From: an uncultured Candidatus Saccharibacteria bacterium
GTDB taxonomy: Bacteria; Patescibacteriota; CPR2; UBA1875; CAIMLA01
Direction of reading: 5' to 3'
Assembly: GCA_964641375.1 (NCBI GenBank)
Contig: CAZXMN010000001.1
Span: forward strand, 2,185 to 66,184
Length of the DNA: 64,000 nucleotides
Numbering within the stretch: position 1 is the stretch's first letter; the number at the start of each line of letters is the position of its first letter. Below are positions 13,249 through 23,860 of this stretch, piece by piece. A program made the translations under genes and the position numbers. The notes under the pieces are model-generated. The model ran no database searches, was not told the DNA's origin, and saw only the letters and a list, made by a program, of their open reading frames with translations.

Positions 13249-13322
13249 CCAGCGGATTCAAATTTTGTATAATGCCCAAAATAGTTAATAAAGTAAAAAA
13301 CAATTCTCGAAGGGAGAAAAGT

Positions 13323-14483
13323 ATGAAAAAAATGTTTAAAAAATCAAAAGTATTACTCGTATACTTATTTGCCGTGCTTTTTGGATTAAGCACAGCAGTA
13401 ATGGCAGCCTCGACTGCCGTCCCAGTTGGTGGCTCAGAACTACAGGCCACTTTGAAGGTTGCAAACTCAACAGCCGGTACAGACTACGAGCAGTCTGTGT
13501 CAGCAAAAGTCGATGATGTCGCCAAATACGAGATTTGGTTCCACAACAACGAAAACGAGAACTCGGGTAAAAATATCGATGACCTTAATATCAAGGTGAC
13601 TTTACCAACAGATCAATCAACATCCCACACCGCCAATCTATCAATTGGTGGAGAAAACTCAAACAAGATTACTGACAGCGCTACTGTAACGACCGAAATT
13701 CCAACATCAATGCAATTCATTGCGGGTACTGTCTATCGTAGATATAACACTGGCACGAATGCTGATCCGGATTGGGTAACCGAAAAGATTACTGATGCTG
13801 TTGTTAATGGTAATGGCTTCACGATTGCTTCTCTGAAACCTTGCTACAACTTCCAAGAAACTATTACATTCCAAGCTCGCGTAATGGCCCCTGTTGTTTC
13901 AATTGTTAAACAGGTTAAAGTAAAAGGTTCTAGTACCTGGGCAACAGAAATTAACGCTAATCCCGGAGATACGCTAACCTACTTGATAGGATTCAAGAAC
14001 GAAGGTAACGTCACACTTGATAATCTTATTATCAGAGACAATTTACCTGAAGGTCTAACCTATGTTAATGGTAGCACGAGTATTACCAATACTTTGTATC
14101 CAAATGGGGTACAAGGAACCGATGATGTTACAAAAGGTGGATTAATTATCGGAAACTTCCTACCGGGTTCAAACGGCTACGTAAGCTTTGATGTAAAAAT
14201 TCCAACCACTGTAAGCGTTTGTGGTAATAAGACATACACCAATGTTGGCGTAGTCAAAGCTGACGAAATTGGCGAGTTTTATAACACAGCCAAAACAACC
14301 GTCAATTTCCCTTGTAAAGTTCCAACTCCTCCAGTTGTAACACCTCCATCTAACCCGCTCCCAACCTCTGGACCGGTTGAGTCGGCCACGGGTGCATTCG
14401 GACTTACAGCCGCTGGTGGTGCCGGATTCGCTTGGCTGAAGAGCAAAAAAGCTTTACTATCAGCTCTCAAGAAAATTAAATAA
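13323..14483 (+). CDS. Secreted DUF11-repeat surface protein with C-terminal sortase-type sorting signal (candidate)
   Basis: RBS AAGGGAGAAAAGT plus ATG. Signal peptide present. A DUF11-like repeat (NPGDTLTYLIGFKNEGNVTLDNLIIRDNLPEGLTYVNGS) is present. The C-terminus has LPTSG, a hydrophobic stretch and KSKK. Confidence 0.6.
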   Translation: MKKMFKKSKVLLVYLFAVLFGLSTAVMAASTAVPVGGSELQATLKVANSTAGTDYEQSVSAKVDDVAKYEIWFHNNENENSGKNIDDLNIKVTLPTDQSTSHTANLSIGGENSNKITDSATVTTEIPTSMQFIAGTVYRRYNTGTNADPDWVTEKITDAVVNGNGFTIASLKPCYNFQETITFQARVMAPVVSIVKQVKVKGSSTWATEINANPGDTLTYLIGFKNEGNVTLDNLIIRDNLPEGLTYVNGSTSITNTLYPNGVQGTDDVTKGGLIIGNFLPGSNGYVSFDVKIPTTVSVCGNKTYTNVGVVKADEIGEFYNTAKTTVNFPCKVPTPPVVTPPSNPLPTSGPVESATGAFGLTAAGGAGFAWLKSKKALLSALKKIK

Positions 14484-14532: not shown

Positions 14533-15618
14533 ATGAACGATATCAAAGAGAGACTGAAAAACTTATCAGAAAGACTCGAAAAGGCCTTTGCTATTTTGAA
14601 TTTGGAAAAGGATAGAACAGAGCTTGCGGAGCTTGAGACACAATCAACGAAAGAAGATTTCTGGAATGATTCAGACGCTGCCCAAGAAACGATGCAGCAG
14701 ATAGGTAACATCAGAAACAGACTAGAAGCCTGGGATACTATTACTAAAAGTATTAATGACCTCGCTGAACTTGCTGGCGATACAGACGAACAGGACACTG
14801 AAATGATGGGCGAGATTGTGGCAAACCTCGAAGAACTTGAAAAAAAGTTCGAGGGACTTGAATTCGAACTTCTATTTTCCGGGCCACATGATTCTGAAAA
14901 TGCTATTGTATCTATCAGCGCGGGTAGCGGTGGCACTGACGCCCAAGACTGGGCCGAGATGCTCCTCACTATGTATTTGAAGTTTGCAGAAAAACACAAT
15001 TTTACGGTGTCTCTACTGGACCGAGCAGACGGTGAAGAAGCCGGCATCAAGGGAGCAACGATCGAGATAAAAGGGGATCATGCCTTCGGATATCTGAAGA
15101 GCGAACATGGCGTCCATAGACTGGTCCGCATTTCGCCTTACGACGCCGCCAAAGCAAGGCATACATCTTTTGCGCTAGTGGAGGTTACTCCCGAAATGAA
15201 AGAGATCGACTATAACCTGGATGAAAATGATCTGAGAATCGATACCTTCCGCTCCGGCGGTCACGGCGGACAAAGCGTCAACACCACTGATTCAGCCGTC
15301 CGTATCACTCACATCCCAACTGGCCTTACTGCCACATGTCAAAACGAGCGTAGTCAGTTGCAGAATAAAGAAATGGCTATGAAAGTGCTCAAATCGAAGC
15401 TTGCCATATATGAAGAGCAGAAACAAGCTGAAGAATTCGCGGTCCTGAAAGGGGAGAATGTTCCCGCTGCTTGGGGCAATCAGATCCGCTCATACGTGCT
15501 CCAACCTTATACCCTCGTCAAAGATCACAGAACAAATTATGAGACTGGAGACGTCCAAAAAGTCCTAAATGGCTACATTGACGAATTTATCGAAGCCTAT
15601 CTCAGAAAACAAGCATAA
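14533..15618 (+). CDS. prfB: Peptide chain release factor 2 (single intact ORF, no programmed frameshift)
   Basis: GGQ motif (SGGHGGQSVN). RF2-type region RISPYDAAKARHTSFA, with SPY in place of SPF. Strong overall similarity to RF2. Confidence 0.85.
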   Translation: MNDIKERLKNLSERLEKAFAILNLEKDRTELAELETQSTKEDFWNDSDAAQETMQQIGNIRNRLEAWDTITKSINDLAELAGDTDEQDTEMMGEIVANLEELEKKFEGLEFELLFSGPHDSENAIVSISAGSGGTDAQDWAEMLLTMYLKFAEKHNFTVSLLDRADGEEAGIKGATIEIKGDHAFGYLKSEHGVHRLVRISPYDAAKARHTSFALVEVTPEMKEIDYNLDENDLRIDTFRSGGHGGQSVNTTDSAVRITHIPTGLTATCQNERSQLQNKEMAMKVLKSKLAIYEEQKQAEEFAVLKGENVPAAWGNQIRSYVLQPYTLVKDHRTNYETGDVQKVLNGYIDEFIEAYLRKQA

Positions 15619-15685
15619 AAAAACTTTTGCTAGCGCTTGACCCGAATCCCAAATTCGCCTAGAATAGATACGAAGAGAGGGACAA

Positions 15686-16378
15686 TTGATTTATTTCGAG
15701 AAGGTATCCAAGATTTACAAGCAGGTTGAGGGCGGCACATCAGAAGCTCTCAAAAATGTAACCTTACATATAAAACCAAGTGAATTTGTCATAGTCGTCG
15801 GTGCATCTGGCGCCGGTAAATCAACTCTTATTAAACTTATTAACCGAGAAATAAGGCCAGACAAAGGCAAGATATTTGTCGGTGGTCTAGATTATTCAGA
15901 ACTTAAGAAACGCGATATTCCATACCTTCGTCGCAAAATCGGCGTTGTTTTTCAGGATTATAAGCTTCTACCGAAGAAAACTGTTTTTGAGAACGTCGGT
16001 TATGCCCTAGAAGTAGCCGGCATCAGACCAAAAGAAATCAAGGAACGTGTGCCGAAGATTCTCGACCTTGTTGGTCTCTCAACAAAAATTAATTGCTTTC
16101 CTAGGGAGCTCTCTGGTGGCGAAAGGCAACGTGTTGCCATCGCTCGCGCCCTAGTTCATCAACCTCGCATTTTGATAGCTGACGAACCAACGGGCAATCT
16201 AGATCCAAAAACATCGTGGGAGATCGTCGAGATTTTGCAGAAGATTAATCAGCTTGGTACTACAATCATTATGACAACTCACAATTCTCATATCGTGAAT
16301 AAGTTAAAAAAGAGAGTTATCAAACTCAGTGACGGTAAAGTTGTTTCAGATGAACAGATGGGGAGGTACGAAGCCTAA
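15686..16378 (+). CDS. ftsE: Cell division ATP-binding protein FtsE
   Basis: Walker A GASGAGKST, ABC signature LSGGERQRVAIARAL, about 230 aa. TTG start. Confidence 0.9.
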   Translation: MIYFEKVSKIYKQVEGGTSEALKNVTLHIKPSEFVIVVGASGAGKSTLIKLINREIRPDKGKIFVGGLDYSELKKRDIPYLRRKIGVVFQDYKLLPKKTVFENVGYALEVAGIRPKEIKERVPKILDLVGLSTKINCFPRELSGGERQRVAIARALVHQPRILIADEPTGNLDPKTSWEIVEILQKINQLGTTIIMTTHNSHIVNKLKKRVIKLSDGKVVSDEQMGRYEA

Positions 16379-17289
16379 TGCATTCATTTATACGTATGAT
16401 AAAATCCGGTTTCTCGAGCTTCATCCGCAACGGCTGGCTTTCTGTCGCTTCTATCACTGTGATGGTACTGACACTGCTTACACTGTCTATATTTTTCATT
16501 CTCAACATTGTTTTAAACACCGGCATTAAAACTATTCAAGACAAGATCGATATCTCAGTTTATTTGAACGACAACATCCAACAAAGCCAGGTTATTGATC
16601 TACAGAATAATCTTGCCGGCATGAGTGAAGTCAAATCCATAAACTACATATCAAAGGACGAAGCACTTACTAAGTTCAAAGAACAAAACAAAGATAATCA
16701 GAAACTACTTGATTCTATAAATGGCATCGACAACTCCTTGCCGGCCAGTCTAGAAATCAAAGTTTATGACCCCGGCAAGTTAGATAAGATCACAACTGTT
16801 ATTGATGCTGCAGTCTATAAACCAATAGTTATGAAGATAAGCTACCAACAGAACAAAGAGATTATCGACAAACTTTTTCGAGCAACGAATATTACGAGAC
16901 AAATCGGAATTATTATTACAATTGCTTTCACACTAGTATCACTCATCATTATCTTTAACACTGTTCGTATTGCTATTTTCTCCAGGATGGAAGAGATAGA
17001 GATTATGAAACTTGTCGGGGCCACGCCAGGTTTCATTAAGGGGCCATTTTTGATAGAAGGAACACTTTATGGCATCATAGCCACATTGATTTCGATGCTT
17101 ATTCTTTCCTCGATTCTATACTTCGCTGCACCAGCAGTCGCCAACTACATCGGCGGAGTAGGTGATAGTATCTCCAATTTCCTCCGAGACAACATCCTAG
17201 AAGTTTTGCTCATCCAACTCGGGGTCGGTATCTTTATCGGTGTCTTCTCTAGCTGGCTCGCAATCCGAAAACATCTCAGATTCAACTAA
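16378..17289 (+). CDS. ftsX: Cell division permease FtsX
   Basis: 303 aa with 4 TM helices and a large extracellular loop. Immediately follows ftsE, with GGGAGGT RBS. Confidence 0.9.
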   Translation: MHSFIRMIKSGFSSFIRNGWLSVASITVMVLTLLTLSIFFILNIVLNTGIKTIQDKIDISVYLNDNIQQSQVIDLQNNLAGMSEVKSINYISKDEALTKFKEQNKDNQKLLDSINGIDNSLPASLEIKVYDPGKLDKITTVIDAAVYKPIVMKISYQQNKEIIDKLFRATNITRQIGIIITIAFTLVSLIIIFNTVRIAIFSRMEEIEIMKLVGATPGFIKGPFLIEGTLYGIIATLISMLILSSILYFAAPAVANYIGGVGDSISNFLRDNILEVLLIQLGVGIFIGVFSSWLAIRKHLRFN

Positions 17290-17476
17290 TCGTCCCGGTC
17301 ATCCTGAGTCGGAACGAAGGGTCCAGGACCCAAATCCTAGATTCTTCACTCGGTTCAGAATGACGAGTAGTAAATCGACTGTCGTTCCGGCCCTCCCTTT
17401 CATTCCTGCGAATGCAGGGATCCACGTGGATCCCCGTGACAAGCACGAGGATGACAACGAGAGAAAACACCCAATA
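17290..17476. other. GC-richer, palindrome-dense noncoding block (candidate structured RNA or foreign remnant)
   Basis: About 53% GC against a 40% backbone. It contains GGGTCCAGGACCC, CCTGCgaatGCAGG, the perfect 16 bp palindrome GGATCCACGTGGATCC, and long-range complementarity CGGAACGA / TCGTTCCG. No credible ORF. Confidence 0.3.
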
Positions 17477-17512
17477 TTGACACATTCTTTCATAAATATG
17501 TTATAATACCCA
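17477..17512 (+). promoter_or_regulatory. Promoter with extended -10 (TTGACA ... TGtTATAAT) for the hydrolase gene
   Basis: Seen in sequence directly upstream of RBS AAGGAGGG. Confidence 0.5.
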
Positions 17513-17522
17513 AGGAGGGTAA

Positions 17523-18746
17523 ATGCACCGCCAGTATAAGGAATCCCAAAAAGCCAAAAAATCTATGTTTAAAAGAATGATAAAACCATCATTAGTGTTG
17601 GTTTTATTTGTTTATACAATTTGTGCGACATTTTCATACCCAATGCCAACAAAAGCAGACTCGAATGTCGATCAGCTTTTGCAACAAAATCAGCAATATC
17701 AACAACAGCTAAATTCACTATATGCTCAACAAAATTCTCTTGCTAACCAGATCGCAATTGCAAACACACAGGCTGCTGCAATTCAATCGCAAATAAATTT
17801 AACATCCGCTCAACTTCAAGATGTAAACAACCAAATAGATAAGACTAATCAAGATATTACGGCGGCACAGGCTAATCTGGACAAACAGAAAGTGCTGCTT
17901 GGTGAGTATATAAAGACCATGTATGTTAATAGTCAAACCTCACAAATCGAGTTAATTCTTACCTCATCAAGTTTTTCAGACTTCGTTGACCAGAGTCAAT
18001 ACCTCGACTCCATGACACAGCAAGTCCAAAATACGACTAATCAAATCGAAAGCTTAAAGAAGGATCTAGATTCTAAGAAGAAAGACCTTCTAACTCAGCA
18101 AGACAAAATCAATTCTTTATTGGCCTCACAAACTGATCAAAAATCGGCCCTAAACGCGCAAAACGATCAAACAAGTTCTTTGCTAGCGCAATCGAAAAAT
18201 TCTGCAGCTGCAGTGTCTGGACAGATTGCAAAGAATAATTCTCAACTGAATATACTTCGAGCTATCGCATCCGGGAATACAGGCGGAGTCATCAATGGTA
18301 ACTTGATTGTCGTTAATCAATCTTTTTTCGTGAATGGAGTGGAACACTCTTATGAATCACAGAGAATGTATGGTCAGGGAGCCTATATACAAGGGAATTC
18401 TAACGCTGACGATAACTTTATTGACATGTACAACAGTGGCTGCCTAGTTACGAGTCTGGCGATGGCCTATGGAGAAACACCTGCACAAGAAGCCGCTAGA
18501 CATCGCTTTAGTTATAGTTATATGGAGGACTCTGGAGGAAGTGCAATCAGTAGTTCTGCGGCCGATAGTTTGTTAGCAAATGGCTCCCCAGTTATATTTG
18601 GGATTGACTGGAACGGAGATGGTTATGCTGATCACTACATTCTTTGTTTCGCTCACACAGACGGAAAATACTACATTGACGATCCTTATTTCGGTGCTGG
18701 CAAAGAGTATTCGTCGTCAGAGGTCGTTAAATACTTAAAACCTTAA
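17523..18746 (+). CDS. FtsEX-associated coiled-coil peptidoglycan hydrolase candidate (PcsB/CwlO/RipC analogue) with C-terminal Cys/His papain-like domain
   Basis: Signal/TM segment followed by about 200 aa Q-rich coiled coil. A C-terminal domain carries candidate catalytic Cys (NSGCLVTSLAMAYG) and His (DHYILCFAHTDG). Lies directly downstream of ftsEX. Confidence 0.55.
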   Translation: MHRQYKESQKAKKSMFKRMIKPSLVLVLFVYTICATFSYPMPTKADSNVDQLLQQNQQYQQQLNSLYAQQNSLANQIAIANTQAAAIQSQINLTSAQLQDVNNQIDKTNQDITAAQANLDKQKVLLGEYIKTMYVNSQTSQIELILTSSSFSDFVDQSQYLDSMTQQVQNTTNQIESLKKDLDSKKKDLLTQQDKINSLLASQTDQKSALNAQNDQTSSLLAQSKNSAAAVSGQIAKNNSQLNILRAIASGNTGGVINGNLIVVNQSFFVNGVEHSYESQRMYGQGAYIQGNSNADDNFIDMYNSGCLVTSLAMAYGETPAQEAARHRFSYSYMEDSGGSAISSSAADSLLANGSPVIFGIDWNGDGYADHYILCFAHTDGKYYIDDPYFGAGKEYSSSEVVKYLKP

Positions 18747-18775
18747 TTGACCTCATTAGCTGAATAGATTAGAAT

Positions 18776-18805: not shown

Positions 18806-20041
18806 ATGAAAAAAGAAGAAGAATCTACAACAGAAATATACAGGAAGCAAAAGAACACCAAGATACTTATCGGTGCGGTGATTTTCTTGTCATTCCTTTT
18901 TGGCTGGGCTTTTGGTCATCTAGATTTTCAAGCTCAGAATGCTGGACTTTCCTCAACTATCATCAACAAGGATAACTCTGCCGTTGATTTTGGCATTTTC
19001 TGGCAGACCTGGGACAAAATCACCGGTGAGTTCGATGGCAAGATAGACACTCAACAAATGATTTATGGTGCTGTCAGCGGAATGGTAAATTCTCTTGGTG
19101 ATCCATACACGGTCTTCATGACCCCAGATCAGACAAAATCCTTCAACCAAGACCTGTCCGGTAGTGTTACCGGTATCGGCGCTGAAGTCGGTGCGAAGGA
19201 TAGTCGCGTCATTATAGTTGCTCCACTTGCTGGTTCACCGGCAGACAAAGCCGGCCTCAAAGCCCAGGATATCATCCTCACAATTGATGGAGTGGATACT
19301 ACCAACATGGACCTGAACACTGCAGTAACAAAGATTCGTGGTAATGCCGGAACCACAGTGAAGCTCCAAATCCAAAGGGGGGATAAGAAACTCGACTTCA
19401 CTATTACCCGTGCTACTGTCGAGACGAAGAGCGTCACCTGGGAAGTTAAGAACAACAACATCGGCTATATCCAGATTTCTCAGTTCGATAGTAATACTTC
19501 AGACCTGATAAAACAGGCTACAGCCGATCTCAAGTCCAAAAACGTGAAGGGAATTATTCTCGATTTACGTAATAACCCGGGTGGATATCTGGATGCCGCC
19601 GTCACGGTTACTAGCGAATTTCAACAAAGTGGTACTGTCGTCACCGAGAAGCCAACTTCTAGGACTGGCACTGAGCAGAAATTTACTGCTACAGGTAAAG
19701 GTAATCTAATGGATACTTCTATCCCGATGGTCGTTCTCGTAAATGGTGGTTCGGCCTCTGCTGCAGAAATTGTCTCAGGCGCTTTGCACGACAATGGTAG
19801 AGCTACGCTTATCGGCGAGAAAACTTTCGGTAAAGGTTCAGTTCAATCTGTTGAGGACCTTCCAGGGGGTGCCAGTCTCCGCGTGACTATCGCTCACTGG
19901 TTTACGCCAAAAGGCGTCAACATCAACAAGGCCGGCATTTCACCTGATATCCAAGTGACTCTGAGTGATGCCGATGCTAACGCCGGTAAAGACCCACAAA
20001 TGGATAAAGCTATAGAGTTCGTAACAAGCAAAATTAAGTAG
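18806..20041 (+). CDS. ctpA: C-terminal processing (tail-specific) protease, S41 family with PDZ domain
   Basis: PDZ segment GSPADKAGLKAQDIILTIDG and S41 core VVLVNGGSASAAEIVSGAL. Confidence 0.85.
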   Translation: MKKEEESTTEIYRKQKNTKILIGAVIFLSFLFGWAFGHLDFQAQNAGLSSTIINKDNSAVDFGIFWQTWDKITGEFDGKIDTQQMIYGAVSGMVNSLGDPYTVFMTPDQTKSFNQDLSGSVTGIGAEVGAKDSRVIIVAPLAGSPADKAGLKAQDIILTIDGVDTTNMDLNTAVTKIRGNAGTTVKLQIQRGDKKLDFTITRATVETKSVTWEVKNNNIGYIQISQFDSNTSDLIKQATADLKSKNVKGIILDLRNNPGGYLDAAVTVTSEFQQSGTVVTEKPTSRTGTEQKFTATGKGNLMDTSIPMVVLVNGGSASAAEIVSGALHDNGRATLIGEKTFGKGSVQSVEDLPGGASLRVTIAHWFTPKGVNINKAGISPDIQVTLSDADANAGKDPQMDKAIEFVTSKIK

Positions 20042-20495: not shown

Positions 20496-20524
20496 TTGAC
20501 GAATAGGCACTTTTCCGTTATAAT
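20496..20524 (+). promoter_or_regulatory. Sigma70 promoter TTGACG-N17-TATAAT upstream of rpmA
   Basis: Near-consensus hexamers with 17 nt spacing, seen in sequence. Confidence 0.55.
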
Positions 20525-22852: not shown

Positions 22853-23860
22853 GTGGCATTTGGTCAACAAACTATGTATGATATGAGTATGTTAAAAGAA
22901 CCAACTATACATCAACTGGAACAACTTCTTGAGGCATTTCGTGCCCAAGGTGGTACCGATGCTGAGATTAATACTCTCGCTCAAGACATAATTAGGGATT
23001 TCAGACCGGAAAAGCAACGCTCCGCAGCCGAAGTTTTTGGTACCGAACAGCATCCAAGCATTAGAAAGATTACGGATTTCAAAAAAGATCCTTCGTCACC
23101 AATCAAAGAAGCCATTTCTAAGTTCTGGAATCATTGGTATACAAAATACCCAATAGTTTTTATCAGTGCCTTTGTCTTGATTTTTGTCGGGTCAAATTTG
23201 CCTCTGTATATAACAAAACTGCAACCTACGAAGACTGTCGTGAAAGAGGTAGCGTCAACAAAAGTACTGGTCCAGAATATGGACAAAAGCGCGCCACTAG
23301 AACCGGGTGAAGTAGTGCCATCATATCCGACTCTGGTTATACCAAAACTCGGAGTCACTGCTCCAATTCTTTTCATCAATACCTATGACGAAGCAACAAT
23401 TGAGGATAATCTTCGCAATGGCGTTGTTCACTATTACCAGACAGCCGAGCCGGGAAAAGTTGGAAATACATTTATCACCGGTCATAGCTCAAACTATTGG
23501 TGGAAAACAGGTGCAGATAATTATATATTTGCCAATTTGGATAAACTAGCGGTTGGTGATCAAGCCAAGATATATTACGAAGGCAACAAGTTCCTGTACC
23601 AGATAACGGAAATCAAGGTTGTTGATCCAACTGACCTTAGTGTTTTAGAACAAACAAGCAAACCAACATTGACTTTGATGACCTGCACACCACCAGGAAC
23701 TAGTTGGAAAAGACTAATAGTGAAATTTGACCAAATCGCACCTGTTTACAAAGCGCCAACCTTAGTAGAAATCCCAACAAGCCAAAAGAATCTGCCTAGC
23801 ATATTGCCGAGTAGCGACACGAGCCTTTTGGACTGGATAGCTAAAATATTTAGATTTTAG
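22853..23860 (+). CDS. Sortase (class E-like transpeptidase)
   Basis: TM anchor, catalytic His (FITGHSS) and the TLxTC active-site motif (LTLMTCTPPG). Confidence 0.8.
   Translation: MAFGQQTMYDMSMLKEPTIHQLEQLLEAFRAQGGTDAEINTLAQDIIRDFRPEKQRSAAEVFGTEQHPSIRKITDFKKDPSSPIKEAISKFWNHWYTKYPIVFISAFVLIFVGSNLPLYITKLQPTKTVVKEVASTKVLVQNMDKSAPLEPGEVVPSYPTLVIPKLGVTAPILFINTYDEATIEDNLRNGVVHYYQTAEPGKVGNTFITGHSSNYWWKTGADNYIFANLDKLAVGDQAKIYYEGNKFLYQITEIKVVDPTDLSVLEQTSKPTLTLMTCTPPGTSWKRLIVKFDQIAPVYKAPTLVEIPTSQKNLPSILPSSDTSLLDWIAKIFRF

Follow-up and report, generated by a model that had tools for sequence, protein, structure and literature searches.

Enzymes that cut the wall are dangerous, and the peptidoglycan hydrolases controlled by FtsEX serve as the model of how a bacterium gates them from within. 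In a 2024 review of these systems the partners of FtsEX were assigned to three types, which carry a degenerate LytM domain (EnvC), a CHAP domain (PcsB) or an NlpC/P60 domain (RipC and CwlO) (PMC11627006). The current report deals with a locus that might encode a partner of another type. It lies in a 64-kb stretch of contig CAZXMN010000001.1 from an uncultured Candidatus Saccharibacteria bacterium (this whole stretch is referred to as "the window"), in which ftsE and ftsX are followed by an open reading frame (ORF) for a protein of 407 amino acids (aa), whose residue numbers are used throughout. An earlier note on this DNA had described the three genes as a triplet; they were found where the note had placed them (Table 1), and the products of the first two score above the equivalog cutoffs for FtsE and FtsX. 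We propose, with a probability of about six in ten, that the product of the third gene is an extracytoplasmic partner of FtsEX, that is, a cysteine peptidase under the control of FtsEX that is directed at the cell's own wall in a manner similar to PcsB, CwlO or RipC and with a different catalytic cassette.

In the literature we found neither a C39-like partner of FtsEX described nor any partner of FtsEX from Patescibacteria, and the database annotations of the protein family examined here are generic ("C39 family peptidase", "CwlO-like protein"). To this extent the suggestion in the earlier note of an uncharacterised variant among FtsEX-controlled hydrolases holds. It does not extend to the catalytic domain itself, which at the level of its family belongs to a recognised Pfam entry and is non-canonical only as a partner of FtsEX.

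Architecture and predicted active site of the 407-aa protein

The signal anchor that had been proposed for the 407-aa protein corresponds to residues 19-37, which form its only strongly hydrophobic stretch, are preceded by basic residues and followed by PTKA/DS, and can be read by eye as a probable signal peptide or membrane anchor. The Gln-rich coiled coil, put at about 200 residues in the earlier note, occupies residues 44-250, with a Gln content of 17.9%, and residues 112-185 within it match PF24568 (CC_PcsB) with 29.5 bits against a gathering score of 27. When an AlphaFold2 model of the full-length protein was compared with the Protein Data Bank (PDB) by Foldseek, the top match was 8idc_E, the RipC chain in the cryo-electron microscopy (cryo-EM) structure of the FtsEX/RipC complex of M. 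tuberculosis. Further matches were 8tzl_E (EnvC in FtsEX/EnvC of V. cholerae), 8jia_E, 4cgk (PcsB) and 6ewy (the N-terminal domain of RipA), and all of these fold matches are weak (E 2e-3 to 4e-2). A search of the PDB with the single sequence returned coiled-coil matches only, among them EnvC (8tzk_E, E 0.0027), and the EnvC model NF008644 covers residues 57-229 only (E 3.5e-5, 23 bits against a cutoff of 270).

The tip of the predicted hairpin lies in a block, residues 125-165, that is conserved among the versions of the protein with C39-like, CHAP, M23 or 3D domains that are described below; Y134, S140, S148, D153 and F154 of this block are invariant in our alignment A4. The block is equivalent in position to the Lip region of RipC and to residues 114-160 of EnvC (PMC11627006), and by analogy with these proteins it might contact the extracellular domain (ECD) of FtsX, which consists of FtsX residues 58-142. 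In the broad family, the end of the second helix and the linker that follows it (residues 221-270, window positions 18183-18332) are conserved as strongly as the catalytic core. The family consensus for this region is LLAETQGSEANYQRLL...CD.WGCYYNQRD, with a pair of Cys residues, and the window protein is divergent here and lacks the pair. We speculate that residues 221-270 may be a restraining element.

The identification of the C-terminal ~150 residues as a divergent PF13529 (C39-like) cysteine peptidase domain with a papain fold is supported by comparisons at the level of the family and by structural modelling. Among 12 aligned C-terminal domains of the family, 11 match PF13529 (best E 2.2e-9) and five match PF03412, the only other family encountered being Peptidase_C10, in one match; CHAP (PF05257), NlpC/P60 and M23 do not match any of the 12. 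Several homologues of the same architecture carry a precomputed PF13529 annotation. In the window protein, there is no match to PF05257 in the C-terminal domain even at E values up to 10, no match to PF01551 (LytM/M23) or PF03412 anywhere, and none to PF00877 (NlpC/P60); the sole match related to NlpC/P60 (NF046048, E 0.0054) falls in the coiled coil. A profile built from the family's C-terminal domains retrieved 171 proteins, most of them annotated with PF13529, at E values down to 4e-44. Many of the short PF13529 proteins in this set are probably truncated coiled-coil proteins rather than stand-alone peptidases, since the last part of helix 2 is still present in their consensus and most of them are encoded on contigs of ~1 kb.

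The AlphaFold2 model of the domain, based on an alignment of 84 sequences, is confident (mean predicted local distance difference test score, pLDDT, 85.5; predicted template-modelling score, pTM, 0.82) and papain-like, in agreement with the fold anticipated in the earlier note. Its 50 top fold matches in the PDB include many papain-like cysteine peptidases, among them cathepsins L and S, a Josephin-type clippase, a papain-like toxin and the C39 double-glycine peptidases 6mpz, 7n87 and 8vp6, and no solved CHAP or NlpC/P60 structures; CdiA-CT toxin domains rank at the top. Among viral proteins, those nearest in fold are a tape-measure domain and a phi29 gp13-like hydrolase. The note had likened the domain to both C39 and C70 peptidases and had set it apart from CHAP and M23. 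Of this assignment, the likeness to C39 and the distinction from CHAP and M23 stand; similarity to C70 was not found for the 407-aa protein.

Both of the motifs in which conserved-looking Cys and His residues had been noticed are present, as SGCLVTSLAMAYG (residues 305-317) and DHYILCFAHTDG (residues 370-381), and the two residues proved to be nearly invariant in samples of the family, where a Gln and an Asp complete a tetrad; the lack of Cys/His conservation that the note had named as a refuting outcome is not what was observed. Gln280, Cys307, His371 and Asp387-Pro388 are invariant in all 84 sequences of alignment A3. His, Asp and Pro are likewise invariant in 81 of 81 sequences from a genome scan (80 loci plus the window protein), a set that provides no independent test of Cys, which was fixed by the search pattern. 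The MAFFT alignment of the genome-scan set misplaces the Gln motif, owing to an insertion specific to the window protein; Q280 is placed correctly in A3 and in an alignment of 146 sequences (145 representatives of clusters at 50% identity plus the window protein), in which Gln is found in 142, Cys in 145, His in 141 and Asp in 136. The order Gln-Cys-His-Asp is the canonical arrangement of C39 peptidases (PMC13642728). For PF13529, a family of clan CA, the Gln of this series is that of the oxyanion hole.

Linkage to ftsEX and exchange of catalytic modules

The 407-aa protein is not a one-off, and is instead a member of a large family in the Patescibacteria. When one genome of each GTDB species was scanned with a sequence pattern, relatives were detected in at least 157 species genomes, and 80 loci were kept, of which 75 had enough upstream sequence to be tested for the presence of ftsX. 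Nearly all of the kept loci are from Patescibacteria according to their record titles. Many of the metagenome-assembled genomes (MAGs) that carry the gene are labelled "uncultured Gammaproteobacteria" or "Pseudomonadales" (L011, L014, L015, L034, L037 and others, with the isolate names HK-STAS-PATE-15 and -17 among them), and these labels are probably taxonomic mislabels. The family is large by sequence clusters too, with 591 cluster representatives (50% identity) found at E <= 1e-30. Of the best 150 representatives, most span coiled coil and peptidase domain alike, and among the best-matching clusters about 136 or more have the C39-like module on this scaffold.

Co-conservation of the triplet, which the earlier note had put forward as a check, is extensive. 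In 60 of the 75 testable loci ftsX lies directly upstream of the partner gene on the same strand, with a median gap of 15.5 nucleotides (nt); the count becomes 61 when it includes L085, for which the called ORF start had overshot, and in three further loci ftsX lies within 1.6 kb. The triplet is kept down to identities of 22-27% between the partner proteins, and also in neighbourhoods that are otherwise different, such as that of L006. Assemblies from ENA, JGI and NCBI encode the exact 407-aa protein on 18 contigs, its neighbours unchanged. Because the identical protein occurs on these 18 contigs and the triplet recurs across many diverged genomes, the arrangement cannot be ascribed to chance.

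Close relatives of the window differ from it in the module that is attached to the coiled coil. Two proteins, P0010 and P0011, are 40-45% identical to the window protein in the N-terminus and coiled coil (residues 1-225) and then continue into a CHAP domain; the tip motif GEYIK.MY..GQTSQ.ELILTS..FSDFVDQSQYL is nearly identical between them and the window protein. Their loci, L088 and L089, have the gene order of the window (DUF11 protein, prfB, ftsE, ftsX, coiled-coil hydrolase, S41 protease, rplI, rpmA, nfo), and their products are 90-93% (FtsE), 81-85% (FtsX), 72-73% (S41) and 84-89% (L9) identical to those of the window. Another locus that is equally close to the window (L004, FtsX 85%) has the C39-like version, with 63% identity. 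In L005/L008, the gene for a coiled-coil protein with a C39-like domain is followed directly by one for a coiled-coil protein with an M23 domain (CC_PcsB plus M23; L005 6208-7401), and an M23 domain is also encoded directly downstream of the C39-like gene in L009, L011, L018 and L039, so that each of these loci encodes two different putative FtsEX partners in tandem. One further protein, P0022, is a version of the scaffold with a 3D domain.

As far as can be judged from these sequences, the cassette on this scaffold is interchangeable in the Patescibacteria, being C39-like, CHAP or M23, and 3D in one relative. We lean towards the broader interpretation that these are plug-and-play partners of FtsEX, in which one scaffold in one slot receives cassettes that are swapped even between near relatives, and that the C39-like proteins constitute a fourth, unrecognised class of FtsEX-activated hydrolases, perhaps with a different bond specificity that is matched to the chemistry of the wall or to an epibiotic lifestyle.

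Proposed mechanism and competing explanations

If the 407-aa protein is a partner of FtsEX, it would be exported or anchored by its N-terminus, and the conserved tip of its hairpin (~125-165) might dock onto two FtsX extracellular domains, in analogy to EnvC, RipC and PcsB (PMC11627006). By the same analogy, the binding and hydrolysis of ATP by FtsE would be relayed by way of FtsX and the coiled coil to the C-terminal domain, which would thereby be activated or released from an autoinhibited state. The released domain would be a C39-like cysteine peptidase, with the papain fold and the Gln-Cys-His-Asp site that were computed for it, and is predicted to cut peptide or amide bonds of the cell's own peptidoglycan at the septum during division. 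The strongest available argument that the C39-like domain acts on the wall is that sister genomes have bona fide peptidoglycan-directed modules at the same position. Wall activity also has precedents in this fold, in the C39-type PeiR (8z4h), which cleaves isopeptide bonds of pseudomurein (PMC13642728), and in the C39-like N5 domain that is predicted in mycobacteriophage LysA (PMC3314691); the viral fold matches given above are of the same kind.

A number of observations weigh against this proposal. The family is known from sequences and predicted structures alone. The Pfam search with the C-terminal domain of the window protein by itself returned only PF13529 (Peptidase_C39_2), at 18-18.7 bits and thus below the cutoff of 24; the PDB matches of the domain model are weak (best E 9e-3, TM <= 0.44); a profile search of solved structures gave only marginal C39-like matches (9jdd, E 0.021; 3erv, E 0.038; PeiR, 8z4h, E 0.074); and the model of the full-length protein is only moderately confident (pLDDT 70, pTM 0.44). 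With regard to the linkage, 11-12 of the 75 testable loci have no ftsX upstream, a distant homologue (P0018), from a genome that encodes a cytochrome oxidase, does not adjoin ftsEX, and in the window itself 233 nt lie between ftsX and the gene, as compared to the much shorter median gap in its relatives, and the gene has what appears to be a promoter of its own. Finally, C39-family enzymes are best known as proteases of proteins or leader peptides. One C39-like archaeal protein cleaved neither double-glycine nor cell-wall peptides (PMC13642728), and because it had neither activity, the substrate of such a domain cannot be read from the fold.

The most probable of the alternatives is that FtsEX gates a protease whose substrate is a protein, such as a leader peptide, a pilin, an adhesin or a component of the divisome, and not peptidoglycan. 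Canonical C39 enzymes (PF03412) are leader-peptide proteases, and the PF03412 matches in five of the 12 family members, the double-glycine peptidases among the fold matches, and the sortase substrates and S41 protease that are encoded nearby would all be compatible with such a role. This explanation seems improbable to us in view of the CHAP and M23 modules, both of which are peptidoglycan-directed, that occupy the same scaffold and slot in relatives of the window, and of the fact that no candidate substrate gene is co-conserved across the 80 loci.

Patescibacteria are often epibionts, and the enzyme might also be a lysin directed at a host or a competitor, with a linkage to ftsEX that is incidental or that serves for regulated deployment only. 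The restriction of nearly all homologues to Patescibacteria, the virion-associated lytic domains that are the nearest viral fold matches, and the rapid turnover of catalytic modules between close relatives, as might be expected of a molecule that faces a host, are what one would predict for such a lysin. We nevertheless consider this quite unlikely, since the linkage to ftsX is tight, with genes often nearly overlapping, in ~80% of loci across very diverged lineages; since the hairpin tip is conserved and is common to the CHAP and M23 versions; and since Pfam scans show no cell-wall-binding or toxin-delivery domain. All known FtsEX partners, moreover, target the wall of the cell that makes them (PMC11627006).

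A third alternative, in which the C-terminal domain would be a non-catalytic adaptor that activates a separate hydrolase, has a precedent in EnvC, with its coiled coil and degenerate, amidase-activating LytM domain (PMC11627006), and would be in line with the tandem M23-bearing gene that some relatives have next to the C39-like one. It is very hard to reconcile with an essentially invariant Gln-Cys-His-Asp tetrad, which is the opposite of EnvC's degenerate site.

Should the 407-aa protein indeed be an FtsEX-gated wall peptidase, it would bring to four the catalytic modules that are known on the same scaffold, and would imply that the scaffold for mechanotransmission is independent of the enzyme that it controls. 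It would also provide a physiological role for some of PF13529, which is a poorly characterised family, and a new piece of the almost unknown cell biology of the Patescibacteria, a group in which genetic work on some members is now possible (PMC10633639). Another cassette as such would not be very surprising. The exchange between near relatives in one slot is useful as a natural experiment, and genomes that differ in the cassette only represent natural chimeras with which autoinhibition and release might be studied.

The surrounding locus and comparison with known systems

The genes between 14.5 and 20 kb of the window are all read from the + strand, in the order prfB, ftsE, ftsX, the 407-aa ORF, the S41 protease gene, rplI, rpmA and nfo, and the features that bear on the current report are listed in Table 1. 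The prfB gene lies 5' of ftsEX in most of the related loci as well, and the ATG of ftsX overlaps the stop codon of ftsE (TAATG). The S41 gene directly 3' of the partner gene is shared with L004, L005/L008, L009, L022, L027, L088 and L089, and most other Patescibacteria loci have no S41 gene in this position. Ctp/Prc proteases control the levels of hydrolases in other systems, and by analogy the S41 protease may exert proteolytic control over the hydrolase or its levels. Further CHAP, M23 or C39 paralogues were sought in the 64-kb window and none were found.

Table 1. Coordinates of the ftsEX-partner locus in the window and the evidence for each feature
Feature	Position in window	Strand	Evidence or details
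prfB, peptide chain release factor 2	14533-15618	+	PCRF E 6e-53; RF-1 E 1e-38
ftsE, ATPase of FtsEX	15686-16378	+	TIGR02673 FtsE equivalog, 280.8 bits vs cutoff 264.85
ftsX, membrane subunit	16378-17289	+	NF038347 FtsX_Gpos 234.7 vs 225; PF18075 FtsX_ECD E 7e-21; PF02687 E 6e-13
Spacer between ftsX and hydrolase gene	17290-17475 (186 nt)		GC-richer, unusually long, palindrome GGGATCCACGTGGATCCC
Likely promoter and ribosome-binding site (RBS) of hydrolase gene	17477-17518	+	TTGACA 17477-17482, 19-nt spacer, extended -10 TGtTATAAT 17499-17507, AAGGAGG 17512-17518; read directly from sequence
Gene for 407-aa coiled-coil / C39-like protein	17523-18746 (stop codon included)	+	
Hydrophobic segment, residues 19-37	17577-17633	+	Hydropathy maximum, mean Kyte-Doolittle 1.88
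Predicted antiparallel coiled-coil hairpin, residues 44-250	17652-18272	+	Helix 44-135, tip 136-150, helix 151-250 (AlphaFold2 full-length model)
Hairpin-tip block LGEYIKTMYVNSQTSQIELILTSSSFSDFVDQSQYLDSM, residues 125-165	17895-18017	+	Proposed FtsX-ECD contact site
Predicted C39-like papain-fold peptidase domain, residues ~262-407	18306-18743	+	AlphaFold2 model, PF13529 relatives, tetrad
Tetrad codons	Q280 18360-18362; C307 18441-18443; H371 18633-18635; D387 18681-18683	+	
S41 C-terminal processing protease, CtpA/B-like with PDZ	18806-20041	+	PF03572 E 4e-55; TIGR00225 349.5 bits

The spacer between ftsX and the hydrolase gene has no repeat within the window and no Rfam match. The hydrolase gene likely has its own promoter, judging by the elements listed in Table 1, and may therefore be transcribed apart from ftsEX. 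A consensus promoter scan omits the TTGACA / TGtTATAAT site because it permits spacers of 16-18 nt only. Identical promoter-like sequences, TTGACC-17-TAGAAT, occur upstream of ftsE (15637-15665) and of the S41 gene (18747-18775), and a near-consensus TTGACG-17-TATAAT precedes rpmA (20496-20524), which suggests gene-by-gene promoters in a compact genome.

Two observations concern the genes that are located further upstream and downstream. At the end of the DUF11/CLIPPER surface protein encoded at 13272-14483, LPTSG precedes a hydrophobic stretch and a basic tail, an arrangement that by eye resembles a sortase sorting signal, and a sortase gene (PF04203) is found ~8 kb downstream, at 22853-23860; together they suggest a Gram-positive-like wall with anchored proteins. 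The segment 12144-13196 contains two near-full-length ORFs that overlap on opposite strands (+ strand, 341 aa; - strand, 348 aa), is locally GC-rich (0.497, as compared to about 0.42 elsewhere), and was assigned to opposite strands by the gene callers on L001 and L002, two contigs that are identical. Of the two products, that of the + strand was scanned; it has no Pfam match and contains a hydrophobic segment and a tail rich in Gly, Pro and Thr.

With respect to its catalytic domain, the 407-aa protein can be compared to several groups of C39-type enzymes. PF13529 proteins, the pseudomurein isopeptide-cleaving enzyme PeiR (C39-type, 8z4h; PMC13642728) and the C39-like N5 domain predicted in mycobacteriophage LysA (PMC3314691) share with it the order Q...C...H...D, and the similarity extends to family-level PF13529 matches and the weak profile match to PeiR. 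These are stand-alone domains or domains of phage lysins, however, that lack both a coiled coil and a link to FtsEX. In the phage literature PF13529 figures as a lysin-associated domain (PMC3314691, PMC10541714), and a 2023 survey treated its members as single-domain peptidases of uncertain role (PMC10318531). The bacteriocin-processing peptidases of PF03412 are N-terminal domains of ABC exporters and cleave double-glycine leaders, whereas the window domain is C-terminal and part of a separate secreted protein.

Among the partners of FtsEX, EnvC resembles the 407-aa protein as a coiled-coil hairpin protein that is encoded beside ftsEX, with weak sequence matches to the window protein (NF008644, 8tzk_E), and some relatives of the window have M23-bearing paralogues in tandem; EnvC differs in being a non-catalytic activator of amidases, whereas the window protein has intact, invariant catalytic residues in a domain of a different fold. 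The architecture of RipC (Mycobacterium/Corynebacterium) and CwlO (Bacillus subtilis) is closer, consisting of a two-helix antiparallel hairpin with a tip, a linker and a C-terminal cysteine peptidase, and no PDB structure matches the full-length model better than RipC (8idc). Their peptidase is of the NlpC/P60 type with a C-H-H site, in contrast to the Q-C-H-D site and the lack of a PF00877 match in the window protein, and the Pro-rich linker of RipC has 52 residues (PMC11627006), as compared to ~10-15 residues in the linker of the window protein. PcsB of Streptococcus pneumoniae has five helices in its coiled coil (PMC11627006), where a two-helix hairpin is predicted for the window protein, and its CHAP domain has a C-H-E site in place of the Q-C-H-D site of the C39-like PF13529 domain. 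PcsB and the 407-aa protein nonetheless have in common secretion, an N-terminal CC_PcsB coiled coil, a C-terminal Cys/His domain of the papain superfamily and the implication of FtsEX, and it is a true coiled-coil CHAP protein that close relatives of the window carry in the identical slot.

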